A DNA stretch of 64,000 bases, from NCBI GenBank assembly GCA_903845045.1, contig CAIMWA010000029.1:32-64031 (forward strand), written 5' to 3'. Below, in pieces: positions 319 to 54,081 of this stretch. The notes under the pieces are model-generated. The model was not told the origin of the DNA, did no database searches, and saw only the letters and a list, made by a program, of their open reading frames with translations. The stretch's first letter is position 1. Every line of letters begins with the position of its first letter. The position numbers and the translations under genes were made by a program. Source of the stretch: an uncultured delta proteobacterium. GTDB taxonomy: Bacteria > Myxococcota_A > Polyangia > Polyangiales > Ga0077539.

Positions 319-3120
319 TCAGCGCTCGCAGACGAACACCTGCGACCCGATGAAGCCCGCCGAGCTGTCGACCTCGAGGCGCAGCGCGTTGGCGCCGTAG
401 CCCGCGGGGCACGAGCATCCGCCGGTGACGGGGTTCGCCGCGCGGCAGGCGACGCCGCCGGGCACCGCGTCGTCCTGCTGGTACGCCCCGCCGAAGGCAG
501 GACGCGCCCCGCTGGACCGCACGCAGATCGCCGGGTTCGACCCGATGATCCCGCGCGACGAGTCGGCCAGCGCGCGGAACCCGATGGCCGTGTAGCCCCC
601 GGGGCACGAGCACCCGCCGGTGTACGGGTTCGCCGCGCGGCAGCCCAGGCCGCCGGGCACGCCGTCGTCCTGCTGGTACGCCCCGCCGTACTCGCCCGCC
701 GCGGAGGCGCCGCAGAACGTCACGTTGGCGCCGGCCTGCGTGCCGCGCCCGCGGCAGTCGTTGATGACGCGCCAGCCCACCACGGTGCCGAAGCCCGACG
801 GGCACCCGCAGCTCCCGCTGTTCTCGGCGTTGCCGTTGTTGCACGACGCGCAGCCCGGGTCGCTCGTCTCGTAGCCGCCGCCGAAGGACTGGCACGACCC
901 CTCGCGGCACACCCCCGACGGGCACCGCGTGCCGCAGCCGCCGCAGTTGTTCGCGTCGTTGGTGGTGTTCACCTCGCAGCCGTCGCCGGCGCCGCCGTTG
1001 CAGTCGGCGTAGCCCGCGGCGCACGTCACGACGGTGCACGCCGAGCCGCCGCAGCCCGCCACGGCGGTGTTCGGCAGCGAGCACGCGCGCCCGCACGCAG
1101 CGCAGTTGCGCGCGTCGTTGGTGGTGTTGACCTCGCAGCCGTTGGACGCGACGCCGTCGCAATTCGCGAAGCCCGCGTTGCAGCCCGCGACGGTGCACGC
1201 GCCGCCGGTGCAGCCCGGCGTGCCGTTCGCCGCGGAGCACGCGTTGCCGCACGTTCCGCACGACCCGACGGTCACGAGCACGTTCGTCTCGCAGCCGTTC
1301 GCCGCGACGCCGTCACAGTCGGCGAAGCCCGTGTTGCAGGCCGCGACGGCGCAGCGACCCGCGCTGCACGCCGCCGTGGCGTTGCCGAGGGCGCAGCGGC
1401 TGCCGCAGGCCCCGCACGACGCCGCCGTGGTGTTCAGGTTCGTCTCGCAGCCGTTCGACGGATCGCCGTCGCAGTCGCCGAAGCCCGCGTTGCACGACGC
1501 CACGGTGCACCGCCCCGCCGCGCACCCCGTGGTGGCGTTCGGGAGCACGCACGCCGTGCCGCAGGCGCCGCAGTTCGTCGGGCTCGTCGTGAGGTCCGTC
1601 TCGCAGCCGTTCGATGACATCCGGTCGCAGTCGCCGCGGCCCGCGCTGCACGACGAGAGCCCGCACACCCCCGCCACGCACGCGGGAACGCCGCCCGCGG
1701 CGGTGCACGCGGTGGCGCACGCCCCGCAGTGGCCCACGTCGGTCTGGAGGTTCACCTCGCAGCCGTCGGCGGGGTCGCCGTTGCAGTCGGCGAAGCCAGT
1801 GTTGCACGCAGTGACGGCGCAGCGACCGGCCATGCACGCCCCGCTGCCGTTCGCGGGAGCGCACGCCCGCCCGCACGTCCCGCAGTTCGCGGCGTCGGTG
1901 CGCAGGTCCGACTCGCAGCCGTTGGCGGCGTTGCCGTCGCAGTCCTGAAAGCCCGTCACGCAGGACCACACGCACGCGCCGGCGAGGCAGCCCGGGAACG
2001 CGTTGTCGCGGTCCGGGCACGCGCGCCCGCAGCCGCCGCAGCTCGCCGTGCTGCGCCGCACGTCGGTCTCGCAGCCGTTGCTCGCGTTGCCGTCGCAGTC
2101 GCCGAAGCCCGTGACGCACGTGGCCACGGCGCACACGCCCGCGGTGCACGCGGGGGCGGCGTTGGGCGGGTTGCACGCGCTCGTGCAGCTTCCGCAGTGC
2201 GCGATGTCGCCCTGCGTGTCGACCTCGCAGCCGTTCGCGGGGTTGCCGTCGCAGTCGGCGAAGCCCGCCACGCAGGCGAAGCCGCAGGTGCCGCCGACGC
2301 ACGTGGACGTGGCGTGGGCCGGCACCGTGCACGCCATGCCGCAGCCGCCGCAGTGCGCGGTCGACGTGAGGGTGTTGGTCTCGCAGCCGTTGCCGTTGTC
2401 GCCGTCGCAGTTGCCGAAGGGCGCCGCGCACATGCCCACGGTGCAGATGCCGTTGAGGCACACCGGGCTGCCGTTGGGTACGGCGCAGCGCGCGTCGCAG
2501 GCGCTGCAGTGCGCGGTGTTCGAGAGCGTGTCGACGCACGCGCCGGAGCAGCACGTCTGGCCCGTGGGGCAGCGGCTGTCGGCGGTGCAGCCGGCCACGC
2601 AGAGGTTGCCCACGCAGAGCGTCCCCGCGGGGCAGTCGGCGCTGGCCAGGCAGTCGACGCACGTGCGCGACGAGCGGTCGCAGCGCCGCGAAGGACCGGT
2701 CCCGCCGTCGGCCGTCGAGGCGCCGGCGCAGGCGCGGTCGTCGCGGCACCCGGGCACGCACGAGTGGCTCGCGTCGTCGCAGTACCGTCCGTCGGGGCAC
2801 ACGTCGTCGGTGGCGGTGCAGGGCACGCAGCGCCCCGTCGCGACGTCGCACGCGGGACCCGCGGCGTTGCCCACGCAGTCGCCGTCGGAGACGCAGCGAA
2901 AGGCCGCCTCGACGTCGGCGCCGCGGTCCGTCGCAACGTCCATGGACGGCGCATCGAAGGCGTCGACGGGCACGTCGAGCACGGCCGGCACGTCGAAGCC
3001 CGCGTCGGCGCCGAGGTCGTTCACCGCCGGCACGTCGTCGCCGCCGCCGACCACGGAGAGGCCGGAACAGCCGAAGATCCCGCCGAAGAGCACCACTGCG
3101 AGGAGCCTGGAGACGCGCAT
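319..3120 (-). CDS. Secreted cysteine-rich repeat lipoprotein (933 aa) with about 11 CGxCG modules and a triplicated C-terminal module
   Basis: I trimmed the track ORF 319..3309 to the ATG at 3120 (MRVSRLLAVVLFGGIFGCSG), which gives a signal peptide plus lipobox. About 45-aa modules repeat: NCGxCGxxC...C..G.C....C..GF.DCDG...NGCE.N. The tail has three roughly 57-65-aa units (GGAYQQDD.VPGG..CRAANP.TGGCSCP.GY). Confidence 0.85.
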   Translation of the reverse strand: MRVSRLLAVVLFGGIFGCSGLSVVGGGDDVPAVNDLGADAGFDVPAVLDVPVDAFDAPSMDVATDRGADVEAAFRCVSDGDCVGNAAGPACDVATGRCVPCTATDDVCPDGRYCDDASHSCVPGCRDDRACAGASTADGGTGPSRRCDRSSRTCVDCLASADCPAGTLCVGNLCVAGCTADSRCPTGQTCCSGACVDTLSNTAHCSACDARCAVPNGSPVCLNGICTVGMCAAPFGNCDGDNGNGCETNTLTSTAHCGGCGMACTVPAHATSTCVGGTCGFACVAGFADCDGNPANGCEVDTQGDIAHCGSCTSACNPPNAAPACTAGVCAVATCVTGFGDCDGNASNGCETDVRRSTASCGGCGRACPDRDNAFPGCLAGACVWSCVTGFQDCDGNAANGCESDLRTDAANCGTCGRACAPANGSGACMAGRCAVTACNTGFADCNGDPADGCEVNLQTDVGHCGACATACTAAGGVPACVAGVCGLSSCSAGRGDCDRMSSNGCETDLTTSPTNCGACGTACVLPNATTGCAAGRCTVASCNAGFGDCDGDPSNGCETNLNTTAASCGACGSRCALGNATAACSAGRCAVAACNTGFADCDGVAANGCETNVLVTVGSCGTCGNACSAANGTPGCTGGACTVAGCNAGFANCDGVASNGCEVNTTNDARNCAACGRACSLPNTAVAGCGGSACTVVTCAAGYADCNGGAGDGCEVNTTNDANNCGGCGTRCPSGVCREGSCQSFGGGYETSDPGCASCNNGNAENSGSCGCPSGFGTVVGWRVINDCRGRGTQAGANVTFCGASAAGEYGGAYQQDDGVPGGLGCRAANPYTGGCSCPGGYTAIGFRALADSSRGIIGSNPAICVRSSGARPAFGGAYQQDDAVPGGVACRAANPVTGGCSCPAGYGANALRLEVDSSAGFIGSQVFVCER

Positions 3121-3220
3121 GACGCTCACCGTACCAGAGCCCGGACGGCGCTCCGAGCGCGCGCAGGTGCGGGCCGACGCCCCCTTCCAACGGTGCGGCG
3201 GGTGCGGTAACGGGTGCCCC

Positions 3221-6200
3221 ATGAAGGCCCTCGCGGTTCGAAGCTTGCTCTGGATGAGCCTCGCGGCTCCGGTGCTCCTGTCGTGTGCCCAGGAACGGGC
3301 GCCCATCAACCAGGTGCAGCCCGACTACCTGGACAAGAACGACTTCATCCCCGCGCAGTACGCGCTGCTCGCGTCGGGGACGGCGCAGCCCGGGTCGCTC
3401 ACCGACGCCGTGATCGCGCGGGAGCCGGTCTACTACACGCAGACCACGATGATCGCGAAGCCGGCGAGCACGGGCTTCGTGGGCCTCACGTCGTACTCGA
3501 ACCTCGAGAAGATCCGCTGGGAGGTCACCGAGCACGCTCTCATCGCGCGGCAGTCCTACGACTTCGTGCAGAACGCGCCGCTGGGCTCCGCGGGCATCGG
3601 CATCACCCCGCGCAGCGGCGAGATCGTGGCGGCGTTCGAGATCACGTCGCACTTCGACATCCGGCGCCAGTACAACTCCACCACCGGCGAGGAGATCAAC
3701 GTGGTCTCCGAGAACACCACGGACCGCCCCTGGTACCAGCGGCAGTTCATGCACGTCGACTGGTCCAAGAACCTCGTCGACGGCTACAACTCGGTGCTCT
3801 CCGACGAGAACTGGGACGGCCGCATCTCCGCCGAGCCCGTGCCGGTGTTCGTGAACACGCCCGATGATCCGAACGCGCCGGTGTTCGACCACGGAACCGT
3901 GAACGGACAGAACGTGCTGCGGTACTTCGACGTGGTCACCCGCGCGATCCTGCACCCCGAGAGCGTCGACCTCGGACCGGGGCTCAGCAACGTGCCGGTG
4001 TGCTTCCTCGGCGAGGGCGAGACGGCGTGCAACCCGGCCGAGGTGACGTTCCGCTTGTCCTTCCGCCGCGCCGACGGGCGCGACTACGAGCCCGCGAGCC
4101 TGAGCCCCGCGCTGCCCGGCGTGGCGACGCCGGTGCCCTCCCTCGACATGGAGCGCTTCGGCTTCTTCGACGCCGTGCGCATGGGCTTCGACACGCAGCG
4201 CCACTCGGTGCTCGACACCCAGCGCGTGCACTGGGCCGCGCGGCACAACCTCTGGGTGCACCACCACGTGCCCGCGTACGGCGCCGCCACGGGGCGCGAC
4301 TGCAACGCCGACGCCGACTGCGGCGACGGAAACCTCTGCCAGATCGGCGCGACGGCGCGCTCCTCCACGGCCCGCGGAACCTGCGTGGCCTGGGGCGCGT
4401 CGCACCTGACCGGCGCCACCGAGCCGCGCTGCACGCAGGACTCGGACTGCGCGGCGGTCTCGTCCACGGCCGTGTGCGACACGCGCGCGGGGACGTGCGG
4501 CGACCACTACGTGCGCTGCGCCGCCGACGACGAGTGCCGCGCGCTCTCGCCGCTCTCGACCTGCGACCTCGCCATCGCGCACAACCGCGCCGACAACCGC
4601 GGCCTCTGCCTGCTGCCGTTCTCGCAGCGCCAGGTGCGTCCCATCGCGTACTGGGAGAGCCCGAACTACCCCGCGCGCGTGCAGCCCGTCACCGAGAGCA
4701 TCGTGACCGAGTGGAACACCGCCTTCGCCGAGGCCGTGCAGGCCGCGCGGCGCCACGAGTGCCACATCGCGCGCAACCTCGACGCGTCGGCGATGACCCC
4801 GACGGCGGACCCCTGCAACGCGCCCGAGGTGCTCGGCACCGACGCCCCGCACGGCGCCGACGCGGTGCACGTCTACGTGGGCTGCCACGCCCCGGTGTGG
4901 GGCTCGGACCCGACGAAGCCCGGCTTCCACCCGGCCGGCGACGTGGCGGCCACGCAGCGCGCGGGCTGGGACCTCCCGGCGTGCGGACCGCAGGGCACGC
5001 AGGCCCGCCTCGGCGACCTCCGCTACAACATGATCGGCGCCATCACCGACCAGGACGCGCAGGGCTACTGGGGCCTCGCGAACATCGCGTCGGACCCCGA
5101 GACCGGCGAGATCATCGCGGGCCGCGGCGCCGTCTGGCAGAACATCACCGACAACTACGGCGCGTGGGTCGTGGACCTCGTGAAGCTCCTCAACGGCGAC
5201 ACGACGGCCACGGCGCTGAGCGACGGCGCCAACGTCATCGCGTCGCTGCGCCAGGTCGGCGGCGGCGCGCAGAGCCCCAGCGCGCAGTCCCTCGACGCCC
5301 CGTTCCGCCGCGCCGGTGCGCTGCGCTCGCTGACCACGGCGACGACGCCCGCCTTCGAGCGCCTGCGCCTCGGCGACGCGGGCTGGTTCTCGCCCGGCGG
5401 CAGCGCCACGCTCATGGGCACCGCCGACGAGCCCGGCGTCATCGCCCGCGCGTCGCAGCGCATCCTCCAGGGACGGCTGCTGGGTGACGGGAGCAACCGC
5501 GCGGCGGCGCGTCGTGCGGCGCTCGTGGGCACCGACGTCGAGTCGTCGCTCATGGGCGGCGCGCAGGCGCTGCTCGCGCCGACGTCGCGGCAGGATCCGT
5601 CGGGGCTGCTCCCGGCGACGCTGAACGCCGCCTCGCCGCTGCGCGCCCAGGACCCCGCGCGGCGCCGCGTGATGCAGCGCATGCGCGACCAGCTCACGGC
5701 GTGGGAGTGCGGCCACGAGGCGGCCTTCGACGACGACATCCTCGCGGGCCTCGCGCAGCGCGTGGTGACCGGCGCGCCGATCTCTCCGGACGACCCCATC
5801 GACGCCCCGGTGGCCTTCGGCCGCACGTGGAACTTCCGCGACGGCAACGGCGCCGTCGACTACGAGCTGGTGCGGCAGTACGCGGTGCAGTTCGTCCACC
5901 ACGGCGTGCTCGCGCACGAGCTCGGGCACTCCGTCGGCCAGCGGCACAACTTCACCGCGAGCGCCGACGCCATCAACTACGACGACCACTACTGGGACGT
6001 GCGCGGCCGCGGCCACGCCGCCGGCCTCGCGCCGCGGTGGAGCTACCTCGCCGACCCCGCCGACGGGCACTACGAGAGCCCCGAGGAGGTCACCGGCCGC
6101 GTCGACGAGTTCGCCTACTCGTCGGTCATGGACTACAAGGGCCTCAACGAGGACGCTCACGGTCTGGGGCGCTACGACCGCGCCTTCGTGAAGAACGGCT

Positions 6201-7792
6201 ACGTCGGCCTCGTCGAGGCGTTCCGCCACGTCGCCGACCGCAGCGGCGCGCTCTACTACTCGGTGAACACCGCGGGCAACGGCCTCTCGACGCCGCTCGA
6301 CCTGCGCCAGTGGTCCACCGGCGGCGCGCCGCACGGCATGCACTACACGCAGATCCCGACGCTCTTCGGCGCCCGCGCCGACGGCACGCCGGACATCCGC
6401 AACGACAACCGCTACGACGTGTTCCTGCGCGAGACGCACAACGAGTCGCTCCCGGGCTGGGGCGACGCGTCGTTCACCAACGTGACCAACGACGGCCACG
6501 TGCTCGTGCCGTACCGCTTCGACTCCGACGAGCGCGCGGGCCTCATCTGGCAGGACCAGCGCTACGACGCCGGCGCCGACGCCTACGAGTCGCTCCACTA
6601 CGTCGCGTCGCACTGGATGGACTACTACTTCCAGAACAGCTACGCGCGCCTTCGCTCGGGCTTCTCCACCGAGGCGTACGTGAGCCGCATGTTCGGGCGC
6701 TACCTCGAGCAGCTCCGGCAGTGCGCGCAGACGCTCGCCTTCGACCTCATCGAGTTCCAGGATTTCCTCGCGACGTCGCCCGGCTGGACGGCGTACCGCG
6801 ACGACCCTGCGGAGGCCGGCGGCTTCGTGAACCAGGCCGCCATGAGCCTCGTCGCCGACGCCTTCACGTCGATGATCGCGATGCCCGAGATGGGCCTGCA
6901 CCAGGTCACCACGCGGCAGGACGGCCAGCGCGTGGCGGCCTACAACGTCGACGCGCGGTCGGGCTTTCCCGTCGCCATCAACGTCGGCCGCGCCTTCGAG
7001 ACCAACTGGCGCCAGGACGCCGGCTTCTGGTGGTACGAGGAGCTGAACCGCGCCGGCTCGTACTACGACAAGGTGCTCAGCATCGACTCGTTCACGGACC
7101 CCGAGCTGCTGCTCCTCGGCCGCGACACGCCGGTGGACCTGCGCCTCTTCCAGCTCTCGTTCTACACGATGTACCCCGCGCAGACGCTGCGCCTCTGGGG
7201 CGCGCTGCTCTCCGAGGACCTCGACGACTACGCGCCCATCGTGGAGGTCGGCGGCACCCACGGCATCACGCGCCCGCACCTCGCCACGCTCAACCTCCCG
7301 CGCGGCAACGGCGCGGGCCAGAGCGGACGCGTGCTCGACGCCGGCCACGTCGCGCTCGACCCGCAGGCGGCGTTCACCGTGCAGCTCCGCGCGGCGATCA
7401 TCGGCACGGCGAATTTCCCCGCCACCTTCGACCAGCGCTACATGGACTACGCGCGCCTCTGGATCGACGGCAGCACCGAGTCCATCGACACCGCGGACCC
7501 GGCGCACGACACCGTGAGCTTCGCCGACCCGTGGTCGCACACCACGTACCGCGCGCTGCATTTCTCCGCGCTCCCGGGCGCGACCGGCGCCGTGGCCGAC
7601 GAGGCCGGCGTCGCCGCGCGCATGATCCTCCGCCTGCGCGACCTCGACGCGCTCCGCACGCGCGCCATCGCGCAGCACCAGGACACCCTCGCCACGTCGC
7701 TCGAGACGCAGCTCCGCGCGTACATCGACGTCATCCACGTCATGCGCCGACTGACCTCGATCTACGGCACCGGGACCGCGGTGACCCACTGA
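3221..7792 (+). CDS. Large secreted zinc-dependent metalloprotease lipoprotein (1523 aa)
   Basis: I trimmed the track ORF 2003..7792 to the ATG at 3221 (MKALAVRSLLWMSLAAPVLLSCAQ), which gives a lipoprotein signal. The upstream part of that ORF is antisense to the previous gene. The HELGHSVGQRHNF zincin motif resembles, from memory, the HExGHxxGxxHNF signature of the DUF4953-type zinc-dependent metalloprotease family. Confidence 0.85.
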   Translation: MKALAVRSLLWMSLAAPVLLSCAQERAPINQVQPDYLDKNDFIPAQYALLASGTAQPGSLTDAVIAREPVYYTQTTMIAKPASTGFVGLTSYSNLEKIRWEVTEHALIARQSYDFVQNAPLGSAGIGITPRSGEIVAAFEITSHFDIRRQYNSTTGEEINVVSENTTDRPWYQRQFMHVDWSKNLVDGYNSVLSDENWDGRISAEPVPVFVNTPDDPNAPVFDHGTVNGQNVLRYFDVVTRAILHPESVDLGPGLSNVPVCFLGEGETACNPAEVTFRLSFRRADGRDYEPASLSPALPGVATPVPSLDMERFGFFDAVRMGFDTQRHSVLDTQRVHWAARHNLWVHHHVPAYGAATGRDCNADADCGDGNLCQIGATARSSTARGTCVAWGASHLTGATEPRCTQDSDCAAVSSTAVCDTRAGTCGDHYVRCAADDECRALSPLSTCDLAIAHNRADNRGLCLLPFSQRQVRPIAYWESPNYPARVQPVTESIVTEWNTAFAEAVQAARRHECHIARNLDASAMTPTADPCNAPEVLGTDAPHGADAVHVYVGCHAPVWGSDPTKPGFHPAGDVAATQRAGWDLPACGPQGTQARLGDLRYNMIGAITDQDAQGYWGLANIASDPETGEIIAGRGAVWQNITDNYGAWVVDLVKLLNGDTTATALSDGANVIASLRQVGGGAQSPSAQSLDAPFRRAGALRSLTTATTPAFERLRLGDAGWFSPGGSATLMGTADEPGVIARASQRILQGRLLGDGSNRAAARRAALVGTDVESSLMGGAQALLAPTSRQDPSGLLPATLNAASPLRAQDPARRRVMQRMRDQLTAWECGHEAAFDDDILAGLAQRVVTGAPISPDDPIDAPVAFGRTWNFRDGNGAVDYELVRQYAVQFVHHGVLAHELGHSVGQRHNFTASADAINYDDHYWDVRGRGHAAGLAPRWSYLADPADGHYESPEEVTGRVDEFAYSSVMDYKGLNEDAHGLGRYDRAFVKNGYVGLVEAFRHVADRSGALYYSVNTAGNGLSTPLDLRQWSTGGAPHGMHYTQIPTLFGARADGTPDIRNDNRYDVFLRETHNESLPGWGDASFTNVTNDGHVLVPYRFDSDERAGLIWQDQRYDAGADAYESLHYVASHWMDYYFQNSYARLRSGFSTEAYVSRMFGRYLEQLRQCAQTLAFDLIEFQDFLATSPGWTAYRDDPAEAGGFVNQAAMSLVADAFTSMIAMPEMGLHQVTTRQDGQRVAAYNVDARSGFPVAINVGRAFETNWRQDAGFWWYEELNRAGSYYDKVLSIDSFTDPELLLLGRDTPVDLRLFQLSFYTMYPAQTLRLWGALLSEDLDDYAPIVEVGGTHGITRPHLATLNLPRGNGAGQSGRVLDAGHVALDPQAAFTVQLRAAIIGTANFPATFDQRYMDYARLWIDGSTESIDTADPAHDTVSFADPWSHTTYRALHFSALPGATGAVADEAGVAARMILRLRDLDALRTRAIAQHQDTLATSLETQLRAYIDVIHVMRRLTSIYGTGTAVTH

Positions 7793-9092: not shown

Positions 9093-9096
9093 CCCG

Positions 9097-12356: not shown

Positions 12357-12372
12357 GGGGTCCGGAGCAGGA

Positions 12373-13314: not shown

Positions 13315-13468
13315 GAAGGGCCTCGAGGTGAATAGGGTGGAGAGGGGCGCGCCGAGCGCGAATGGCCGCGGAATCTACACGAACGCTCGCGCTCTGCGAG
13401 CCTCGGCATGCTAAGCGACAGGCTCCGTTGGAGACGCGGCGATGGCGCCGCACGCACTGGAGATGACG

Positions 13469-14134
13469 ATGCGAACGAAGATCATTCTTGGAACGAGCCT
13501 GCTCCTCTCTGCCTTCGCGGCCGGCTGCGGCGACAGCGCCTCGACGGCGGACGCCTCGGTGACCGACGTGGGAACGCCCAGCGACACCGGCTCCGCGACG
13601 ACGGACACCGGCGCGGTGACCGATGCGGGACCGCACGCCGACAACCCCGTGGTGACGGACGTACCCGCGGTGACGGACGTGCCGGTCGCGACCGACGTTC
13701 CTGCGGTGACCGACGTCCCCGCGGTGACGGACGTTCCCGCCGCGACGGACGTTCCCGCCGCGACGGACGTTCCCGCTGCGACGGACGTTCCCGCGGTCTT
13801 CCCGGTGCTGCACGGCTGCGCGGCGACGGACTACGTCGACCAGAGCGCCGCCGCCGGTGTGCGCACGGTGTCCTTCGGTGGCGTGGCCTACACGCCGAGG
13901 TGCCTGACCATCGCGGCGGGCCAGTCGGTGAGCTTCTCCGGTTCCTTCGCGGCGCACCCGCTTCGCGGCGGCCTCGCGCCGGGACAGACCGGCACCGCGA
14001 CGACGCCGAACCCCATCGCGAACACCGACACCGGATCGACGGCGGCGTTCACCTTCGCCACGCCTGGCTTCTACCCGTTCTACTGCAACGTGCACTTCGC
14101 GTCGGGCATGACCGGCGTCGTGCAGGTCCGCTGA
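13469..14134 (+). CDS. Cupredoxin (plastocyanin/azurin-like type-1 copper) lipoprotein with a VTDVPA tandem linker
   Basis: The lipoprotein signal is MRTKIILGTSLLLSAFAAGC, with GGAG 6 nt upstream. The track ORF starts at 13442, and 13463 is another possible start. The C-terminal domain has candidate T1Cu ligands: FAAHPL ... FYCNVHFASGM, i.e. C-x2-H-x4-M. Confidence 0.8.
   Translation: MRTKIILGTSLLLSAFAAGCGDSASTADASVTDVGTPSDTGSATTDTGAVTDAGPHADNPVVTDVPAVTDVPVATDVPAVTDVPAVTDVPAATDVPAATDVPAATDVPAVFPVLHGCAATDYVDQSAAAGVRTVSFGGVAYTPRCLTIAAGQSVSFSGSFAAHPLRGGLAPGQTGTATTPNPIANTDTGSTAAFTFATPGFYPFYCNVHFASGMTGVVQVR
13652..13795 (+). repeat. In-frame 18-bp tandem repeat, 8 units, encoding (V/A)TDVP(A/V)
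   Basis: Read directly: gtgacggacgtacccgcg and its variants occur 8 times consecutively inside the cupredoxin gene. Confidence 0.9.
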
Positions 14135-15788: not shown

Positions 15789-15846
15789 CCTTGCTTGTAT
15801 ACAGTTCTTTCCGGTGCTCCGCGACCGGGTGCTAGGGTCGGTTCCG

Positions 15847-16887
15847 ATGGCGAGCGTCGTGGCGAGAGGCTTGGTCGCGGTGGCGCTGGCGACCGCATGT
15901 GGCGTGGGCGCGGCGCAGGCGCACTCGCGGCACCACCACCACCACGCGAACCACGGGCACCACCACACCCGTCGCGACGGCGCGAGCGCCCGCCCGGCGG
16001 CCGCCGAGCCCGCGAGACCTCCGACCAGCGTCGCCCCGGCGGCCACCGCTGGCGCCGCGCGCACCTTCCGCGGCCACGACGAGGACGCCCTGCTCCACGA
16101 CATGGCCACGCGGCCCGTGCTGCGCGTCATGGAGCGCTTCAGCAGCAGCACCCTCGTCTACCACTGCGACCTCGGCAACGGCCTCGAGGTGGCCTTCAAG
16201 CCCGCCCGCCGCGGCGAGCACCAGTGGTGGAAGCACGAGGTGCTGGGCTACCGCCTCGCGCGCGTGCTCGGCATCACCGGCCGCGTGCCTCCCGTCGTGA
16301 GCCGCACGGTCCCGCTGTCGGCGCTGCGCGGCTACACCCACGGCGCCGACCTCATCGTCGAGCGCGACGGCACCGTGCGCGGCGCGGCGATCTTCTGGAT
16401 GCCCGTGCTGCACCACGCCGGGCTGCACACCGGCGCTCCCCGCGCGCAGTGGGAGCACTGGCTCGACGCCCGCACCGACGTGCCCCCGGCGAACCGCCGC
16501 CGGGCGTCGCAGATCTCGGCGCTGCTCGCCTTCGACTACCTGCAGGCCAATTTCGACCGGTGGAACACCGCGAACGTACCCGTCGACGAGCACGACGACC
16601 TGGTGTTCCGCGACAACAACCGCGGGTGGTTCATGGAGAACCTCGCGCGCACCGACATGGGCACCGTGGTGCCGCCGCAGCGGGTGCCGTCGTGGATGCT
16701 CGCGGGCATCGAGCGCGCGACCCCCGAGGCCGTGCGCGCCGAGATCGCCCGCGACGGCCTCCCGTTCCATCGGCTGGCGCAGCGGTCGTACTGGGACGCC
16801 TACGCCGCCCGCCGCGAAGCGCTGCTCCGGCAGCTCCGCGAGGCCATCACCCGCTTCGGCCGCGACCGCGTGCTGTTGGACGAGTGA
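15847..16887 (+). CDS. Secreted atypical kinase-like protein (Fam20/Fjx1-like motif blocks, tentative) with an N-terminal His-rich tract
   Basis: I trimmed the track ORF 15154..16887 to the ATG at 15847 (MASVVARGLVAVALATACGVGAAQA), which gives a signal peptide. A His tract follows (HSRHHHHHANHGHHH). The motif blocks are LEVAFKP, HEVLGYRLARVLGITGRVPPVV, LLAFDYLQANFDRWN and VFRDNNRGWF. Confidence 0.8.
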   Translation: MASVVARGLVAVALATACGVGAAQAHSRHHHHHANHGHHHTRRDGASARPAAAEPARPPTSVAPAATAGAARTFRGHDEDALLHDMATRPVLRVMERFSSSTLVYHCDLGNGLEVAFKPARRGEHQWWKHEVLGYRLARVLGITGRVPPVVSRTVPLSALRGYTHGADLIVERDGTVRGAAIFWMPVLHHAGLHTGAPRAQWEHWLDARTDVPPANRRRASQISALLAFDYLQANFDRWNTANVPVDEHDDLVFRDNNRGWFMENLARTDMGTVVPPQRVPSWMLAGIERATPEAVRAEIARDGLPFHRLAQRSYWDAYAARREALLRQLREAITRFGRDRVLLDE

Positions 16888-20093: not shown

Positions 20094-20285
20094 CCGGGCC
20101 GCCCCTTTCCCGGGTCGTTTCCCGCAGCAATTCCCGGGTCTCGCGGGCTCCGTCGGAACGCGCCATTCCCGATGCCAACGCGGGCCGCGGTTGGAGTATC
20201 TTCCGCGGTCGCAGCGAGTCTGACGGCCCAGCTCTGCACCGGTGGAGACCCGTGCGCGTGCAGGCCGCGAAGGATCACTACCGCG

Positions 20286-28682: not shown

Positions 28683-30305
<1,623 letters not shown>

Positions 30306-30395
30306 CGCCGTGCCGACCCGGATGCGTTCGTCCAGACGTTGCGTTCCCGGCCCGAGGGTGAAATCCTGCGGCGGGGTCGAAGCCCCGCGCCCTCG

Positions 30396-31694
30396 ATGAG
30401 CGAAGCACCGCACACCCGAGCCGGAGGACCGCTGAGCGCGGCCGAGAACGACGAGGTCCTCTCGATGTTCGCTCGGCTCTCGGGCAGCTACTACGAGGTT
30501 CTCGGGGTGCCTCCGGGGTGCGATCGCGCGGCCCTCCGAGCCGCCTATTTCGACCAGCTCGATCGCTTCGGCACGCGCCGCTACGAGGGCCGCGACATGG
30601 CCGCGCAGGGATGGCGCGTCGAGGCCATCGTGCGCGAGATCGAGGCGGCGTTCAGCGTCCTCGGCGACCCCGACCAGCGCATGCGCTACGACCGGCTCCT
30701 CGCCGTGCGGGCAGGCATCGCAGGCCTCGACGCCCCCGCGGCGCCGAAGCCCGGAGCCGATCCCCACCCGAAGGCGCCCCGCGCGTCCGCCGACTCGCGC
30801 ATCCCGCCGCCGCTGCGACGCACCGCGGGCCCGCGAACGCCTCCGACGATGCGGGTTCGCGACGTGCGCACGCCGCTGCCGATGATGGCCCGCGACGCCC
30901 TCGGCGCGGTGTCGCCGCCGCCGCGCCCGTCCCCGCACGAGTCCGCGCCGGTGCACCGCCCGTCGGCCCCGCCTCCGCCCATCGCGGCCACGAGGAGCGC
31001 CGAAGGGTCCTCCACGCCCTCGTTGCCGCCGCCGCGCAGGCCGTCGCCGGTGCCCCCGCGCCGAAGCTCGGTGCCCCCGCCGCCGCTGGTAGCCAGGTGT
31101 CCGACGCCGGAGCCTCCGCCCGCGGGGCTGGCCCTCGAGTCGTTGGCGCGCGCCCGCGCCGAGCAGCGCGGCGCGTCGGCGCAGAAGAACCTCGACGAGG
31201 TCGAGCAGCTCATCGAGCGCGCCGCCCGCAACGACGACCACGCCGAGATCGTCCGGCTGCTTCGGCATGCGCTCACGCTCCGGCCCGACGACGCGACGTA
31301 CCGCACGCGCCTCGCTCGGGCCGAGGAGTCCGTGCACGACGCGTCGGTGCAGAAGCTCACCGGCGAGGCGCGCGCCGCGGAGAAGCTTCAGCGCTGGCAC
31401 GCGGCCGGCGACCTCTGGGCCAAGGTCGCGGACCACCGCGCGGCCGACGCCGGCGCCGCCCTGCACGCCGCGCAGACGCTCTGCGAGGCCGGCGAGGATT
31501 TCGCCCGCGCAGCCGACTATGCGAAGCGGGCCATCCGCATCGCGCCGGACATGATCGGCGCCCACGTGTGCCTCACGCGCGTCTTCTTCAAGGCCGGACG
31601 CACCGCGAGCGCGCGCGGCGCCCTCGAGGCCGCCATGAAGCTCGACCCGCGGCACCCCGACCTCCTCGACCTCAGCAAGAAGCTTCGGGGCTGA
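30396..31694 (+). CDS. J-domain-like (no HPD motif) / Pro-rich / TPR protein
   Basis: YYEVLGVPPGCDRAALRAAYFDQLDRF....FSVLGDPDQRMRYD matches J-domain helices I-III, but DRFGTR replaces the HPD tripeptide. A Pro-rich central region follows, then C-terminal TPR-like repeats. Confidence 0.8.
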   Translation: MSEAPHTRAGGPLSAAENDEVLSMFARLSGSYYEVLGVPPGCDRAALRAAYFDQLDRFGTRRYEGRDMAAQGWRVEAIVREIEAAFSVLGDPDQRMRYDRLLAVRAGIAGLDAPAAPKPGADPHPKAPRASADSRIPPPLRRTAGPRTPPTMRVRDVRTPLPMMARDALGAVSPPPRPSPHESAPVHRPSAPPPPIAATRSAEGSSTPSLPPPRRPSPVPPRRSSVPPPPLVARCPTPEPPPAGLALESLARARAEQRGASAQKNLDEVEQLIERAARNDDHAEIVRLLRHALTLRPDDATYRTRLARAEESVHDASVQKLTGEARAAEKLQRWHAAGDLWAKVADHRAADAGAALHAAQTLCEAGEDFARAADYAKRAIRIAPDMIGAHVCLTRVFFKAGRTASARGALEAAMKLDPRHPDLLDLSKKLRG

Positions 31695-31733
31695 CCGCTC
31701 GACGACGTCGCGGCGTTGGGGTAATCCCCGGCC

Positions 31734-32141
31734 GTGTCGTCGCGATCCGAGCCTGGTCGTCTCGTGCTGGCTGCGGCCTTCGGCGCCGCCTTCGCTTCGT
31801 CGGGATGCGACCCGACGACGGTGACCCGCACGCCGGTGGCCGCCGCGGTGACGTCCGGCGGAGCGCGTTCGGCTCCGGCACCGTCGAACGATCCGGTCGA
31901 GCTCGTGCGCGAAGGCCGCATGCGCTTCGAGGCGGCGTGCGCGCGATGCCACGGCGGCGAGGCCGACGCGGGGTCCCTCGCGGGCGCCGCGATCACGACG
32001 CAGCACCTCGAGGCGGCGCTGCACGTCGGGGCCGACGACGGCGGGCTGCTTCCGGCGGTGGCGCCGACGGAGCTGACCGAGGCGCAGCTCCCTGCGCTGC
32101 GCGCGTATCTCCGCTCCATCGGCGCGCTGCGCAGCGAGTGA
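31734..32141 (+). CDS. Small c-type cytochrome lipoprotein
   Basis: The start is GTG. The lipobox is AFASSGC. There is a single haem-binding CxxCH motif (CARCH). Confidence 0.7.
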   Translation: MSSRSEPGRLVLAAAFGAAFASSGCDPTTVTRTPVAAAVTSGGARSAPAPSNDPVELVREGRMRFEAACARCHGGEADAGSLAGAAITTQHLEAALHVGADDGGLLPAVAPTELTEAQLPALRAYLRSIGALRSE

Positions 32142-32210
32142 CGGCGGCCTGCGGTGCGGTAGCCGCGCGCTCGACTCTCTGATACCAAGCCTGCACTTGG
32201 AGGACCCTCG

Positions 32211-45921: not shown

Positions 45922-47685
45922 ATGTCCGAACCGCCTGCCTCGCGTCGCTCCCGCCGCCCTCGTCGCGCCCGATCGCGGAGCACCGACGCCGCTCCGCGTG
46001 CGCCGCGCTGGTTGCCGTGGGTGCCGGGGCTCGCCGCGGTGGCGACGTACGCGAACGCCGTCGTCGATCTCCTGGTCTTCGACGACCGATCGTCGCTCCC
46101 GGTGCCGCTGCGTGCCGGCGACGGCTTCACTGCTTCGGTGTTGCGGGCGTTTCGCGACAACCCGTGGGACTCCGTGCGCCAGGGCGTCGATCCGTACCGG
46201 CCGCTCGCGACGGCGACGCTGCTCGCCGACCGCGCGATCTGGGGCGTCGCGCCGCGGGCGTTCCATGCGACCACCGTCGCGCTCCACGCCGCGGCGTCGG
46301 TGCTGGTGTTCGTCGTCGCGCGGGCGCTCCTCGGCTCCCGGGCCTGGATCGGTCCGCTCGTGGCGTCGGTGCTCTTCGCGGTGCACCCGCTGCACTCCGA
46401 GGTGGTCGACTGCGCGTACAACCGCTCGGAGATCCTCGCGACGCTGGGCGTGCTCGGCGCCCTGTGGCTCGTGGCGCGCGCCTCCCCGCGGGACCGCCCT
46501 CGGGCGTGGCTCGGCGCCGGAGCGCTCTACGCCGCGGCGCTGTGCTGCAAGGAGAGCGCGGCGACGCTGCCCGCGCTGCTGGGACTGTGGATGGTGCTCC
46601 GCGCTCCGGACCAGCCCCTGCGCGAGCGCCTCCGCGCGGCGGCGCCGAGCCTCGCCGGTGCGGGCGTGCTGGCGTCGTACCTCGCGCTGCGCTTCGGCTG
46701 GGCGCGATACCCGACGGCTCCGCGGCCGGCGCGGGTGCTCGACCCCGAAGCGCTCGCGCAGACCCTCGCGGCGGCGCGCGACGGGCTCCGCTGGACCCTC
46801 TGGCCGGACCCGCTCTGCGTCGCCCGCGTCGACTACCCCGCCGACGCCGTGCCCGTGGCGGTGGTGGTGCTCGGCGCGCTGCTCGCGGTCGCGTGGCGCC
46901 TGCGCGCGCGGCTCCCCGTCGTGACCTACGGGCTGCTGTTCTACGTCGTGGCGTTCGTGCCGTCGTCGCCGCTTGTGACGCGCCTCGCGAGCGCTCAGCC
47001 CGTGGCCGAGCGGTACTTCTATCTCCCCACCGCGGGCCTCGCCATCGCCCTCGCCGCGGCGCTCGGGTCCCTCTCGCGTCGGGTTCGTCCGGCGGCGGTG
47101 CTGGCTCCCGCGGCGGTGCTCTGCGTACTGCTCGCGGGCGTCACCCGGGCGCGCAACGAGGTGTGGCACGACGAGGTCCGGCTCCTCACGGCCAACGCCG
47201 ACGCGCAGCCCGGCAGCGGCGGGGCGCTGCTGTTCCTCATGAACACCGTGCGGTATTTCCGCGGCGAGCGCGCGATGCTCGCGCTGTGCAACGCGCACCG
47301 CGACGAGGCGGGGCTCCGGAGCGCGCAGTTCTACGTGCGCTGCGCGGGTGAGTTCGACGCGCGGGGCGACGCCGACGCGGCCGAGGCGTTCCACCGTCGC
47401 GCGGTCGAGTCCGAGCCGACGGAGGTCGCGCGCTACACCTACGCGCGGATCCTCGCGCGCCGGGGTCGCATCGCCGAGGCCGACGCCCAGTACCGCGCGG
47501 CGCTCGAGACGATGACCGAACCCGCGCGGAGGCACACGTTCCGCGGCGAGTGGCTCTTCAAGTGCCACCCCGAGCAGCTCGCCGAGGCCCTCGCCGAGGA
47601 GGACGCCGCGCTCGCCGCGGACCCCCGCAACGCCATCGCCAAGGACCTTCGCCGCCGCATCGCCGCGGCCCTCGGCGCTCCCTAG
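45922..47685 (+). CDS. TMTC-like GT-C membrane protein (PMT_2/DUF1736-type N-terminal domain plus C-terminal TPR)
   Basis: YANAVVDLLVFDDRSSL, YRPLATATLLADRAIWGVAPRAFHATTVALHAAASVLVF and FLPSSPL..........ERYFYLP fit, from memory, the bacterial TMTC/PMT_2-like family pattern. The C-terminal 150 aa or so are TPR-like. Confidence 0.75.
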   Translation: MSEPPASRRSRRPRRARSRSTDAAPRAPRWLPWVPGLAAVATYANAVVDLLVFDDRSSLPVPLRAGDGFTASVLRAFRDNPWDSVRQGVDPYRPLATATLLADRAIWGVAPRAFHATTVALHAAASVLVFVVARALLGSRAWIGPLVASVLFAVHPLHSEVVDCAYNRSEILATLGVLGALWLVARASPRDRPRAWLGAGALYAAALCCKESAATLPALLGLWMVLRAPDQPLRERLRAAAPSLAGAGVLASYLALRFGWARYPTAPRPARVLDPEALAQTLAAARDGLRWTLWPDPLCVARVDYPADAVPVAVVVLGALLAVAWRLRARLPVVTYGLLFYVVAFVPSSPLVTRLASAQPVAERYFYLPTAGLAIALAAALGSLSRRVRPAAVLAPAAVLCVLLAGVTRARNEVWHDEVRLLTANADAQPGSGGALLFLMNTVRYFRGERAMLALCNAHRDEAGLRSAQFYVRCAGEFDARGDADAAEAFHRRAVESEPTEVARYTYARILARRGRIAEADAQYRAALETMTEPARRHTFRGEWLFKCHPEQLAEALAEEDAALAADPRNAIAKDLRRRIAAALGAP

Positions 47686-49124
47686 GAACGCCGTCGCCGC
47701 CGCCGCGACCACAGCGCCAGGGCCGTCGCGAGCAACGCCGCGCCGCGACCGTCCGCGGCCGTGGAGACGTGACATCCGCAGCCTCCCGAGGTCGTCGTCG
47801 AAGGCGCACCGGCGTCACGCAGCCCCGCGTCGAAGCCGGCGTCGGCGGCGTCGGGGATGCCGGCGTCGGCGGGCGTCGTCGCGGTGTCTACGGCCGGAGC
47901 GCCGGCGTCGCGCGCGGCGGGTCCGAGGTCCGTCGGGGGCGCGGGCGCGTCGGCGCCGGCGTCGAGGTACACGGGCGTCGGCGGCGCGCCGGCCTCGGTG
48001 GTGCGCAGCGGCCTCGAGACCGTGTCCCAACGCGGCCCGCAGAGCGTCGTCACCGGCGACGACGCAGGGCACTCCGCCGACGGACCTTGGAGCGTACGCA
48101 GCGAGAGGAGCGGCGCGATGTGGTCGCCCGCGTCCGCGGACCACCCGAGGGACCACCCGTCGACGACCTCGTCGGCGCACACGAAGAGCACGCCGGCGTG
48201 GTAGCGCAGGCACTTCACCGAGACGCTGCCGCCGACGCGCGTCCAGGGCCCGCCGGCGACGGAGCGCTGCAGCCCCTCGGTCGCGTCGGTGCTCGCGGTC
48301 CACACGGTGCGCCCGTCGTCGGAGAGCGCGAAGCCGAGCATGGTGCCGCGGGTCGCGCCGATGCCGCGCAGCGTGAAGCCGCCGTCGTCGCTCTCGAAGA
48401 GCACCGTGCCGAGCCCGTCGTTGCCGCGGAGGTAGAGCACGTCGGGCCGGTGCGCATCGACGCCGGCGACGTACACGCTGCCGTCGACGCCGAAGGTCCG
48501 CGTGACCTCGTGCACCGACATGCCGCCGTCGTCGCTGCGAAGGAGCACCGCCACGCCGCCGGACGCATACGCGGTCACGTAAACCCTCCGCGGGTCCGAC
48601 GGGGCGACGTCGACGGTCTCGCCGAAGAACCCGTGGAGCCCGGCGCCCGCGCTCCAGCTCTGTCCGCCGTCGGCCGAGACGTAGAGCGCGTTCTCGCCCG
48701 ACGGGCCCAGCAGCGCCACGAGGTGCGTGCCATCGGCGGTGTTCGCGAGGTCGCCGAAGCCCTGCGCCGGCGCCCCGGCAGCCGCCGGCCACGCGCAGTA
48801 CGGCGACGCGCTCGCGAAGAGGCCCGCGAAGGTCGCCACCACCGCGGTGCCCCCAGCGCCGATGGCGAGCGACGGGTCCCCGGAGCCCGCCGAGGCGAAG
48901 GCCTCCTCGCACACCCAGGACCAGTCGCGCCCGCCGTTGCGCGAGACCTGCAGCCCGAAGGTCGTGCGGAGCAGCAGCACGTCGTTCGTCGCGCCCGGTC
49001 CAGCGACGAAGTAGTTCGCCGCCGGAAAGCGGCCGTTGGCCTCCGCCGCGGACGCTCCGAGGACGCTCAGCGCTGCGACGCAAACCTTGAAAAACACGGA
49101 GAACCGACGCGCGGCGGGCTGCAT
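47682..49124 (-). CDS. Secreted BNR/Asp-box beta-propeller protein with a MYXO-CTERM-like sorting tail
   Basis: I trimmed the track ORF 47682..50906 to the ATG at 49124 (MQPAARRFSVFFKVCVAALSVLGASAAEA), giving a signal peptide. Asp-box motifs: SRNGGRDWS, SADGGQSWS, RSDDGGMSV, ESDDGGFTL, LSDDGRTVW. The tail is SGGCGCHV..GAALLATALALWSRRRRRRS. Confidence 0.85.
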   Translation of the reverse strand: MQPAARRFSVFFKVCVAALSVLGASAAEANGRFPAANYFVAGPGATNDVLLLRTTFGLQVSRNGGRDWSWVCEEAFASAGSGDPSLAIGAGGTAVVATFAGLFASASPYCAWPAAAGAPAQGFGDLANTADGTHLVALLGPSGENALYVSADGGQSWSAGAGLHGFFGETVDVAPSDPRRVYVTAYASGGVAVLLRSDDGGMSVHEVTRTFGVDGSVYVAGVDAHRPDVLYLRGNDGLGTVLFESDDGGFTLRGIGATRGTMLGFALSDDGRTVWTASTDATEGLQRSVAGGPWTRVGGSVSVKCLRYHAGVLFVCADEVVDGWSLGWSADAGDHIAPLLSLRTLQGPSAECPASSPVTTLCGPRWDTVSRPLRTTEAGAPPTPVYLDAGADAPAPPTDLGPAARDAGAPAVDTATTPADAGIPDAADAGFDAGLRDAGAPSTTTSGGCGCHVSTAADGRGAALLATALALWSRRRRRRS

Positions 49125-49326
49125 CGCGACGGCACGATCCCACGGTGCGGACGCAGCGGAGGTCCAATTCGTCGCGCGCTCGGTGTGGCCCACCTGCACC
49201 CACATCGCGTCGTCAGCGCGGCCATTGTTGGAGGTCCACCCAGGCTTCTCTGCGCGGGCAATTCGCGGTATTCCGCGAGGACTCGGCCTGCGCGCAGCGA
49301 GCGCGCACGCCGCGGGAGGCTTGCGC

Positions 49327-52300: not shown

Positions 52301-54081
52301 GCGCGGCGAACTGCGGCGCCTGCGGCCGCGCGTGCGCCCTCGCCAACGCGACGTCGGCGTGCACGTCCGGCGCCTGCACCGTGAGCGCCTGCTCCACGGG
52401 CTACCTCGACTGCGACGGCATCGCGGCGGACGGCTGCGAGGTCAACACCCGCACGGACCTCAACAACTGCGGCGCGTGCGGCGTGTCGTGCTCGGCCGGC
52501 CAGGTGTGCTCGGCCGGCGTGTGCACCGCGACCTGCGCCAGCCCGCTCAGCACCTGCGGCGCCGCGTCGTCGGCGTACTGCGCGAACCTCTCGTCGGACC
52601 CGCTGAACTGCGGCGTCTGCAGCCTCGTGTGCGCGCTCTCCGGCGCGGCCACGAACGGCTGCAGCGGCGGCGCCTGCACGGTGCTCACGTGCAACGCCGG
52701 CCTCGGCAACTGCGACGCCATCGCGGCCAACGGCTGCGAGACGAACCTCAACACCACCGCGGCGAACTGCGGCGCCTGCGGCCGCGCCTGCTCGCTGTCG
52801 TTCGCCACGGCGACCTGCGTCGGCGGCGCCTGCGCCGTCGGCTCGTGCACGACGGGGCACCGCGACTGCGACGCGAGCCCGTCGAACGGCTGCGAGGTGA
52901 ACATCCTCACGGACAACGCCAACTGCGGCGGCTGTGGCACGCCGTGCGGCGCCGGCCAGGTGTGCTCCTCGGGCGTGTGCACGGCGACGTGCGCCTCGCC
53001 CCTCACGGCGTGCAGCGGCGCCTGCGTGAACCTCGCGACGGACCCGACGCACTGCGGCCTCTGCACGACGACCTGCCCCGCGCGGACCAACGCCGCGCCG
53101 GTCTGCAACTCGAGCGTCTGCGGCTACGTGTGCTCCGCGGGCTTCGCCGACTGCGACCTCGCGTCGGCCAACGGCTGCGAGGTGAACGTCACCACGTCGC
53201 TCACGAACTGCGGCGCCTGCGGCAACGCGTGCCCGGCGCGCGCCAATGCGACGGCCACCTGCGGCAGCGGCACCTGCGGGTTCACCTGCAACAGCGGCTT
53301 CGCCGACTGCGACGGCGTGGCCAGCAACGGCTGCGAGGTCGACCTCAGCAGCAACGCCGCGCACTGCGGCACCTGCGCGACGAGCTGCGGAACCGGCGCC
53401 TGCACGGCCGGAAGCTGCGGTCCGGCCTGCTACACGGGCGCGGCCCGGGTGCTCATGCTGAGCTCCGGCGGGAGCGCGTCGACGACGTACTTCCCGGCGG
53501 GCACCGTGGTCACCACGGTGACGGACGCGATGTGGTCGTCGATGACGGCGGCGCAGTTCGGCAACTACGACCTGCTCTGGGTCGACGGAGCGAGCTGCAG
53601 CGGCACGCTGACCCCGTACTCCACGCTGACGTCGACGGTCGCGGCCTGGGGCCCGGCGGTCACCGGCCGCGTCGCTCTCACGACCTCGGACGCGGACCTC
53701 CACGCGCCGGGCAACGGCAACGCGCAGACGTTCATCGCGAACAGCGTGCGCTACCTCGCGGGCCTCGGCCGCAACGTCGACGGCGGCCGCACCGGCATGT
53801 ACCTCTCCACGGGGTGCTCCGGCGTGACGCTGGGCAACTACACCGGCGCCTTCGGCAGCCCGCTCACGAGCTCCACCGGGGTCTCCTGCGTCGACCCGAC
53901 GGCGGTGACCACGGCGGGCCTCACGCACCCGATGCTCTCGGGCATCGCGACGACCAGCGCGCTGTCGTGGGGCTGCTTCGGGCACACGTACATGTCCGCG
54001 TACCCCGCGGCGTTCACGGACCTCGCGGACCTCGGCACCGGCCAGGCCGGGCTCGTCGTCCGCTCCGTGACCTGCCACTGA
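49327..54081 (+). CDS. Giant secreted cysteine-rich repeat lipoprotein (1584 aa, about 27 CGxCG modules plus a non-repeat C-terminal domain of about 215 aa)
   Basis: I trimmed the track ORF 49036..54081 to the ATG at 49327 ([26 protein letters not shown]), giving a lipobox. By my own count, about 27 copies of (N/H)CGxCGxxC are embedded in two module types. The last 215 aa or so have a different composition. Confidence 0.9.
50500..53100 (+). repeat. Higher-order super-repeat of about 456 bp (152 aa) inside the giant Cys-rich gene
   Basis: The landmark gc(c/g)gg(c/t)cagg (AGQVCS) recurs at 50551, 51007, 51463, 52042, 52495 and 52951. The spacings are 456, 456, 579, 453 and 456 bp. The 579-bp unit carries one extra module of about 41 aa. 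Confidence 0.85.

Follow-up and report, generated by a model that had tools for sequence, protein, structure and literature searches.

We analysed a stretch of 64,000 nt (hereafter the window) from an uncultured delta proteobacterium, contig CAIMWA010000029.1, in which five genes encode exported proteins rich in cysteine (Cys), here called C1 to C5, and four of them stand head-to-head with a gene for another exported protein. A preliminary description had taken the five as one CGxCG-type module family, and the four junctions as a repeated scaffold-plus-enzyme architecture. Our results lead to another picture, which we regard on the whole as the best explanation and as a fairly probable one: the five proteins fall into three unrelated families, the head-to-head arrangement is incidental in three of the four pairs, and the fourth, between C3 and a kinase resembling the animal Fam20 kinases, is a conserved two-gene unit which looks functional in view of its sequence and gene neighbourhood.

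The gene neighbourhood in relatives carries this finding. A search with aligned kinase homologues yielded 49 loci in about 20 metagenome-assembled genomes (MAGs), and these loci were scanned by tblastn with the window proteins and by open reading frame (ORF) calls. In seven MAGs (loci L004-L010) the whole block cupredoxin(+)/C3(-)/kinase(+)/prfC(+) is found, the kinase being 65-70% identical; in two more (L019 and L051) C3 and the kinase are again head-to-head, here with a gene for a protein of 2600-2700 amino acids (aa) upstream and with prfC absent, which makes nine MAGs and two genomic contexts for the divergent arrangement. A third context is provided by L040 and L058, where a C3-like gene is preceded, on the same strand and at a distance of 2.5-3 kb, by a kinase paralogue. 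Copies per genome appear to be few, with two to three kinase loci per MAG and three C3-family proteins on the contigs of one assembly, and we estimate, assuming genomes of ~10 Mb, that chance proximity of the two families within 3 kb is well below 1% per event. The few copies per genome together with three independent contexts therefore point to a functional link between C3 and the kinase. Moreover, the intergenic region between the two genes is conserved in an alignment with seven relatives while the proteins are only ~45-70% identical, and just upstream of the kinase ATG it holds TGTA(T/G)A and TGCTAGGGT elements which look like -10 boxes and may serve as promoter elements.

The assignment of the kinase relies on profile, fold and catalytic motifs, which together bear out its earlier reading as Fam20-like. 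A family profile made from 19 members and searched against the PDB matched only Fam20C/A/B chains, the best at 2e-10. The AlphaFold2 model, with a predicted local distance difference test score (pLDDT) of 84 and a predicted template modelling score of 0.78, gave by Foldseek a list of PDB matches in which the top 28 are all Fam20 (Fam20C, Fam20A, and the Fam20 of hydra and C. elegans), with E 4e-11 to 8e-7 and template modelling scores (TM) of ~0.6. Four residues, K118, D230, N235 and D256, are invariant in 44 sequences: D230 and N235 lie in FDYLQANFDRWN, which aligns to FDFLMGNMDRH of Fam20C, D256 lies in FRDNNRGW, which aligns to HLDNGRGF, and K118 would, by its position rather than by alignment, be the equivalent of the ATP-binding Lys. 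With Pfam Fam20C (PF06702, cutoff 26.8 bits) the window kinase has no match and 4 of 19 close homologues match weakly; two distant members of the family, P0275 and P0330, exceed the cutoff with 28.6 and 28.5 bits. The full profile search found 1029 representative clusters of the family at E <=1e-3. The two papers on Fam20 kinases that were consulted (PMC5865150, PMC7948968) do not discuss bacterial homologues. As for variation within the family, each MAG has two to three paralogues, and the His-rich tract that is N-terminal in the window kinase is C-terminal in other members.

Compared with the Fam20 kinases, namely the Golgi casein kinase Fam20C, the pseudokinase Fam20A and the xylosylkinase Fam20B, the window kinase is alike in fold, profile and export signal, and in motifs that match FDFLxGNxDRH and hxDNGRGF. 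It differs from them in being bacterial and much smaller, with a core of ~275 aa, and in being almost free of Cys and hence without the Fam20 disulfide pattern, while a His-rich tract has been added; furthermore it is itself below the Pfam thresholds, and its neighbour C3 is without S-x-E sites.

C3, the partner, represents a separate family. Its N-terminus has two small Cys modules, followed by a disordered DTGP-repeat linker and then by a beta-rich domain of 320 aa, where about 40 Cys are invariant in the homologue alignment. About 50 homologues were found; uncultured Myxococcota are the source of all of them, and a Pfam domain was seen in none. The AlphaFold2 model (524-aa query) has pLDDT >90 over residues 205-524; Foldseek with this model gave no significant PDB match, and the family profile gave no match among PDB sequences. 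The best, non-significant matches of the model are the Cys-rich domains of Dkk4 and Dkk1 together with small knottins, and C3 shares with these Dickkopf N-terminal and knottin-like modules the repeated short C...DC...C units; yet with E ~1 or worse and TM <0.1 over the query there is no evidence of homology, and in contrast to such small modules the C3 domain is a 320-aa composite with its ~40 invariant Cys. For C3 the start at 15788 given in the preliminary description is the right one: its ATG is invariant in an alignment with seven relatives and the N-terminal residues that it adds are conserved, whereas the public call at 15749 is short. The gap of 58 bp to the kinase depends on this start.

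From these features a mechanism can be proposed. Both proteins would be exported, and the kinase, keeping the Fam20 catalytic residues, is probably active and would probably act on or with C3, either at the cell surface or extracellularly; it may modify C3, or it may be bound, positioned or regulated by C3. In animals, Fam20-type kinases phosphorylate secreted proteins and proteoglycans. We put forward as a speculation, with a rather small chance of being right, that C3 and the kinase are a prokaryotic counterpart of this secretory-pathway system, in which the kinase phosphorylates C3, or is docked or regulated by it, at the myxobacterial surface or in lysed prey, where ATP would be available. 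If true, such a counterpart would be an unrecognised form of bacterial extracytoplasmic protein phosphorylation, in a family with about 1000 representative clusters.

The genes of the window (GC 71-77%, with long ORFs in most frames) were called from third-position GC and homology, giving a map of 34 genes, and export signals were assigned by eye from the N-termini; the features under discussion are collected in Table 1. All five Cys-rich ORFs are open over their full coordinates, with GC at the third codon position (GC3) of 0.92-0.98 and Cys contents of 8.6-14.1%, and they have family or homologue matches; an N-terminal signal peptide or lipobox-like sequence is seen in every one of them, their summed length is 11,712 bp or 18.3% of the window, and the divergent gaps are 100 bp for C1/metalloprotease, 127 bp for C2/cupredoxin, 58 bp for C3/kinase and 202 bp for BNR/C5. 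In all these points, namely gene positions, export signals, a share of about 18% and short gaps, the preliminary description was accurate. Metagenome contigs identical to the window were found in several lake-water samples, where the public gene calls include C2 and C3, and the relatives found are all MAGs of uncultured Myxococcota, many of them labelled Polyangiales; the MYXO-CTERM signal at the end of the BNR protein likewise speaks for a myxobacterial source. The window would be a chromosome segment of an uncultured lake-water myxobacterium whose closest genome matches are MAGs mostly labelled Polyangiales, and in it genes for lineage-specific, exported, disulfide-rich proteins would be scattered among housekeeping genes (prfC, rplU, rpsB and tsf). 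Rfam and tRNA scans of the window gave no RNA genes.

Table 1. Cys-rich genes, their neighbours and the shared intergenic regions in the window
Feature	Position	Strand	Description
C1	319..3120	-	933-aa lipoprotein; GC3 0.97, 13% Cys
intergenic C1/metalloprotease	3121..3220	.	100 bp, divergent
metalloprotease	3221..7792	+	1523-aa lipoprotein, metzincin-type Zn-metalloprotease, DUF4953/PF16313 family
C2	12373..13314	-	313-aa lipoprotein, class-B Cys-rich domain, 27 Cys in protein, no CGxCG
cupredoxin	13442..14134	+	lipoprotein with VTDVPA-repeat linker
C3	14175..15788	-	537-aa exported protein (predicted), own family
intergenic C3/kinase	15789..15846	.	58 bp, divergent
Fam20-like kinase	15847..16887	+	346 aa, lipobox-like signal, His-rich tract, kinase core ~72-346
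Ser/Thr protein kinase, DnaJ+TPR protein, cytochrome c lipoprotein	28683..32141	+	Pfam matches
C4	32211..33809	+	532-aa lipoprotein chimera
BNR protein	47682..49124	-	BNR/Asp-box beta-propeller, signal peptide, MYXO-CTERM sorting tail
intergenic BNR/C5	49125..49326	.	202 bp, divergent
C5	49327..54081	+	1584-aa lipoprotein, 27 CGxCG module cores, 13 A (41-54 aa) + 14 B (52-53 aa)

That the five proteins are three families and not one follows from motif counts, family models and pairwise comparison. Family A, which comprises C1, C5 and the N-terminal half of C4, consists of arrays of Stig1/MXAN_6577-type modules, each opening with CGxCGxxC; family B is a domain of ~240 aa (class B) common to C2 and the C-terminal half of C4; and family C is C3 alone. 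CGxCG occurs 7, 0, 0, 3 and 24 times in C1 to C5, respectively. Against Pfam Stig1 (PF04885, gathering cutoff 24.1 bits) and NCBIfam NF041328 (MXAN_6577-like cysteine-rich protein, cutoff 100 bits), both cutoffs are passed by C5 (149.5 bits at 3.9e-44, and 474.9 bits) and by C4 (55.6 bits at 7.5e-15, and 106.2 bits); C1 has no Stig1 match at E <=0.1 and stays under the NF041328 cutoff with 84.4 bits, while neither C2 nor C3 has a Stig1 match at E <=0.1 or any NF041328 match. By pairwise BLASTP, C1 is homologous to C5 (42% identity over ~680 aa, E 4e-113), and C2 aligns at 40% identity (1e-40) to C4 residues 284-504 and not to the Stig1 half of C4; C3 shows no similarity to C5 (E 0.7). The single CGxCG-type family has thus to be given up, as C2 and C3 have neither the motif nor a match to either model, and the earlier guess of a Stig1-like module holds for C4 and C5, and through homology for C1, but not for C2 and C3.

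A dissection at the CGxCGxxC cores gave 42 module cores of two kinds in C1, C4 and C5 together: the Stig1-like type A of 41-54 aa, and type B of 52-53 aa with the C-terminal end GF.DCDG...NGCE. C1 has ten of type B and one A-like module and C4 has four of type A; in C5 (Table 1) many modules are arranged in A-B-B super-repeats of 152 aa each. The periods agree with tandem repeats in the DNA, whose unit is 456 nt long in C5 and 156 nt long in C1. In likeness to Stig1 and NF041328 proteins the arrays are secreted and disulfide-rich, with C4 and C5 above both cutoffs, and type A, as CGxCGxxC...GxC...C...C, corresponds to the C-terminal portion of the Stig1 profile. They differ in being bacterial and lipid-anchored, in having not one domain but up to 27 module cores, in adding the type-B module, which Pfam Stig1 does not report in C1, and in being fused to unrelated C-terminal domains. 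The plant STIG1 is a stigma-specific Cys-rich protein and a ligand of pollen receptor kinases; this function cannot be transferred to the bacterial modules. The modules of C1, C4 and C5 are, as far as profile matches and homology define them, new members of known, uncharacterised families. We infer that the Stig1-type arrays would most likely form rigid stalks or binding surfaces, stapled by disulfides and anchored by lipid, with variable C-terminal domains attached.

In the searchable literature no functional study of bacterial Stig1/MXAN_6577 modules was found, in agreement with the earlier statement that no function has been described for them: there were no papers on MXAN_6577, and those found on PF04885 or STIG1-like proteins are mostly on plants and none on bacterial proteins. 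One match to Stig1 together with myxobacteria was rejected as false, being due to Stigmatella peptide names. A PDB sequence search with C5 found nothing. Besides the modules, a short CxxDxDC...C motif recurs in an insert of the metalloprotease (aa 361-450), in C1 (aa 76-175), in C3 (aa 24-60) and at the C-terminal ends of C2 and C4, and is not found in C5; it is perhaps a small disulfide unit shared across this lineage.

We now turn to the three pairs that are not kept in relatives. C1 combines an N-terminal region of CxxDxDC motifs with its ten B modules of 52 aa ending in NGCE and the terminal A-like module; its C-terminal domain (aa 745-933, window 319-885) contains a tandem duplication of ~75 aa with GGAYQQDD...CRAANP.TGGCSCP, and the C-terminal domains of C1 and C5 are related neither to each other nor to known families. 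The divergent partner of C1 has the zinc-binding HEXXHXXGXXH motif in the form HELGHSVGQRH (residues 899-909) and at least 233 homologues, many of them with PF16313, which confirm it as the metalloprotease it had been named. Similar to the DUF4953/PF16313 metzincins of Myxococcota, whose members with PF16313 have 1300-1600 aa, it carries HEXXHXXGXXH; it differs from them in that it has no Pfam match of its own at E <=0.01, in the Cys-rich insert at aa 361-450, and in a Stig1-type pairing peculiar to this genome. Upstream of metalloprotease homologues with 64%, 54% and 39% identity stand genes other than C1, and a further homologue at 65% (L080) has no Stig1-type gene in ~4 kb on its upstream side. 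Conversely, in L032, from one of the closest relatives, the head-to-head neighbour of the C1 orthologue codes for an unrelated protein of 562 aa without signal peptide, and the C1 orthologue in L020 follows a gene on the same strand and is not beside a metalloprotease. The C1-metalloprotease pair is thus kept in no relative examined.

The cupredoxin next to C2 passes the Pfam Copper-bind cutoff (PF00127, 2.1e-6, 28.5 bits vs 21.2) and has its ligands in a C-terminal FYCNVHFASGM, that is C-x2-H-x4-M, with a further His upstream in AAHPL; cutoff and Cys/His/Met ligands alike substantiate its identification. Its VTDVPA linker is coded by an 18-nt tandem repeat at 13646-13797, and in different metagenome samples of one population the protein is called at 218, 224 or 230 aa, which points to copy-number polymorphism of the repeat. 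The cupredoxin gene is present in all seven close relatives (L004-L010) and adjoins C2 in one of them, L010; the C2-cupredoxin pair is not conserved.

The third pair joins C5 to a BNR protein. The latter shows one exact Asp-box SxDxGxxW (SADGGQSW) by pattern search and several visible degenerate boxes of the SDDGG type, a TIGR03901 MYXO-CTERM match and a weak NF045728 match, and no Pfam match at E <=0.01; a profile of the window protein and four relatives matched GH74 xyloglucanases at 5e-15, as well as the BNR glycosyl hydrolase 3b7f, HCF136, sortilin and sialidases. Asp-boxes and profile matches agree with the propeller that had been suggested. The C-terminal domain of C5, of ~215 aa (aa 1365-1584, window 53400-54081), is not Cys-rich and has only a weak DUF6345 match. 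A metagenome scan with the single BNR protein gave no relatives; 37 loci were found when the query was a BNR alignment made of translated loci. Neither the closest homologues (51-53%) nor a large group at 29-37% has a Stig1 neighbour; a subgroup at 41% (L053:1-2991, L062, L063 and L064) adjoins a Stig1-type gene, tail-to-tail, and a shared promoter therefore cannot account for the adjacency. The BNR-C5 pair is thus largely not conserved: the two gene types meet again in one more distant subgroup only, and there they are convergent. A metalloprotease orthologue is found ~4 kb from the BNR gene in L053 and L080, a loose clustering of BNR, Stig1-type and metalloprotease genes in another genome.

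Stig1-type genes appear about once per 60 kb in relatives, with varied upstream neighbours mostly on the same strand. For example, in five of the seven close relatives (L004-L007 and L009) the gene for a giant Stig1-type lipoprotein (L004:12965-18739, 1925 aa in L004) lies between prfC and a giant TPR gene, a place taken in the window by an FAD amine oxidase (18633-20093), which shows that Stig1-type genes change position from one relative to another. C4, the fifth Cys-rich gene, comes last in a series of same-strand genes (Pkinase, DnaJ+TPR, cytochrome c) with gaps of 90, 39 and 69 bp, as the preliminary description had it and as Pfam matches and strand corroborate. It is built of a PPTDTGTT linker, the four type-A Stig1 modules (residues 110-270) and the class-B domain homologous to C2 (residues 284-504).

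How should the four junctions be understood as a whole? The preliminary description saw in them functional pairs, where each Cys-rich protein, as a scaffold, inhibitor, substrate or matrix component, is co-regulated from a divergent promoter with a dedicated secreted enzyme. In fact the 34-gene map has eight divergent junctions, of which four join a Cys-rich gene to another exported protein, and by shuffling the labels over the map at least four Cys-rich/secreted divergent pairs arise with P ~6e-4, a figure that is post hoc and comes from one window with categories assigned by eye. The gaps are short (58-202 bp), C3 and the kinase are conserved, BNR and Stig1-type genes are neighbours in a second lineage as well, and the metalloprotease has the CxxDxDC motifs that C1 to C4 also have. 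Against this, the proteins belong to three unrelated families, C1-metalloprotease is seen in no relative examined, C2 is absent beside the cupredoxin in six of the seven, the recurring BNR-Stig1 adjacency is tail-to-tail, and Stig1-type genes have varied and mostly same-strand neighbours. Moreover, motif sharing among the four intergenic regions does not exceed chance: the GC-rich 8-mer CCGAGCGC, although present in all four, occurs 33 times in the window vs 30 expected and is not conserved in the orthologous regions between C3 and the kinase. As to transcription, five DNA metagenome runs (lake or other) hold the C3-kinase region, and no RNA run is listed. The junctions themselves can be explained otherwise, as 14 of the 34 window genes encode exported proteins and the Cys-rich genes make up three of the nine minus-strand genes; with minus-strand Cys-rich genes in a mainly plus-strand, secreted-rich region, divergent junctions are automatic. 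Four functional pairs therefore seem quite improbable, the idea being largely refuted by the non-conservation in relatives; the four junctions and the partner identities stand, and conserved pairing holds for C3 and the kinase (nine MAGs) and for none of the other three. Under the explanation we prefer, three of the four arrangements would be local gene-order accidents, the Cys-rich genes being gained, lost and moved between relatives.

One may go further and regard all five genes, C3 included, as accessory surface or secreted genes with fast turnover that landed between conserved operons, in which case the conserved C3-kinase arrangement would be inherited synteny and every pairing incidental. 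The presence/absence variation of C2 among relatives and the giant Stig1-type gene after prfC, where the window has a different gene, agree with this, as does the prfC context common to seven of the nine head-to-head cases, which could be plain synteny, and the many kinase homologues without a C3 neighbour. On the other hand C3 and the kinase persist amid different flanking genes in L019 and L051, paralogues of both families are linked in the third context of L040 and L058, the copies per genome appear so few that chance proximity was estimated at well <1% per event, and the intergenic sequence is conserved although the proteins have only ~45-70% identity; we therefore consider turnover of all five genes to be unlikely. 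Still another possibility is that in a genome of 73% GC the Cys-rich ORFs are antisense shadows of real genes on the opposite strand, where ORFs are indeed long, for example 1949-7792 (+), 47682-50912 (-) and 31517-33403 (-), and show a more typical GC1 > GC2 and high GC3. This can hardly be credited: the unusual GC1/GC2 of the Cys-rich frames is because of their many TGC/GGC/GCC codons, and these frames have GC3 of 0.92-0.98, export signals, matches to the curated Stig1 and NF041328 models, a regular module periodicity, dozens of homologues with invariant Cys columns, a confident AlphaFold2 model for C3 and, for C2 and C3, agreement with public gene calls. With this homology and family evidence the shadow artefact was rejected.

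The favoured explanation, three families with C3 and the kinase as the one conserved unit, has also points that weigh against it. Kinase orthologues at 55-62% (L011-L018 and L020) and ~30 paralogue loci have no C3-like neighbour, and two C3 paralogues have no kinase within 8 kb; the coupling is therefore limited to one clade. No extracytoplasmic ATP source for the kinase is evident, and C3 as a Fam20C-style acidic-motif substrate is not supported, since S-x-E, the canonical Fam20C motif, does not occur in it. The shuffle P and the BNR-Stig1 adjacency in a second lineage leave some probability that Stig1-type proteins and secreted enzymes are functionally connected in a looser way. Finally, all relatives are MAGs, in which errors of assembly or binning are possible, and the gene calls and export signals were made without dedicated predictors. 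Among more distant kinase homologues, L096 has no Cys-rich neighbour and L097 has an unrelated, convergent DUF4215-type Cys-rich protein; a weak C3 match in L046 was rejected as it was lost in the domain-only search.

It follows for further work that four scaffold-enzyme systems need not be sought here, as the Cys-rich genes are mixed and most of the pairings would be accidents of gene order. The lead that is left is the small exported Fam20-type kinases of this myxobacterial lineage, whose gene is in one clade locked head-to-head with that of a novel protein with 40 Cys. Bacterial extracytoplasmic phosphorylation is poorly understood, and a natural kinase-partner pair would offer a direct way into it. 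Moreover the dissection into A and B modules and the A-B-B super-repeats can serve as a basis for better models of the Stig1/MXAN_6577 family, whose arrays are functionally blank.

Some other features of the window deserve mention. The gene at 38963-39751 (+) encodes a lipoprotein in which a Tat-type signal (RRRLPV...) and a linker rich in D/A/G/P are joined to a Rieske [2Fe-2S] motif (CTHQGC...CPCHG); it is the third exported redox protein of the window beside the cupredoxin and the cytochrome c. The gene at 33853-34722 (-) codes for a protein of ~290 aa without export signal, whose terminal tail, rich in Lys, Ala and Pro, is similar to histone H1 (KTPAKKSTTKPAKAPVKAPAKSKAKPKGRSKGK). A TPR-repeat protein of 2620 aa with a very high GC1 of 0.84 is encoded at 20172-28034 (+), after prfC and the FAD oxidase, and its position is conserved in relatives. 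In rpsB (54350-55339), the 3' end at 55120-55254 encodes a C-terminal tail of ribosomal protein S2 made of GGRGP/RERG repeats, which arise from several overlapping tandem repeats.

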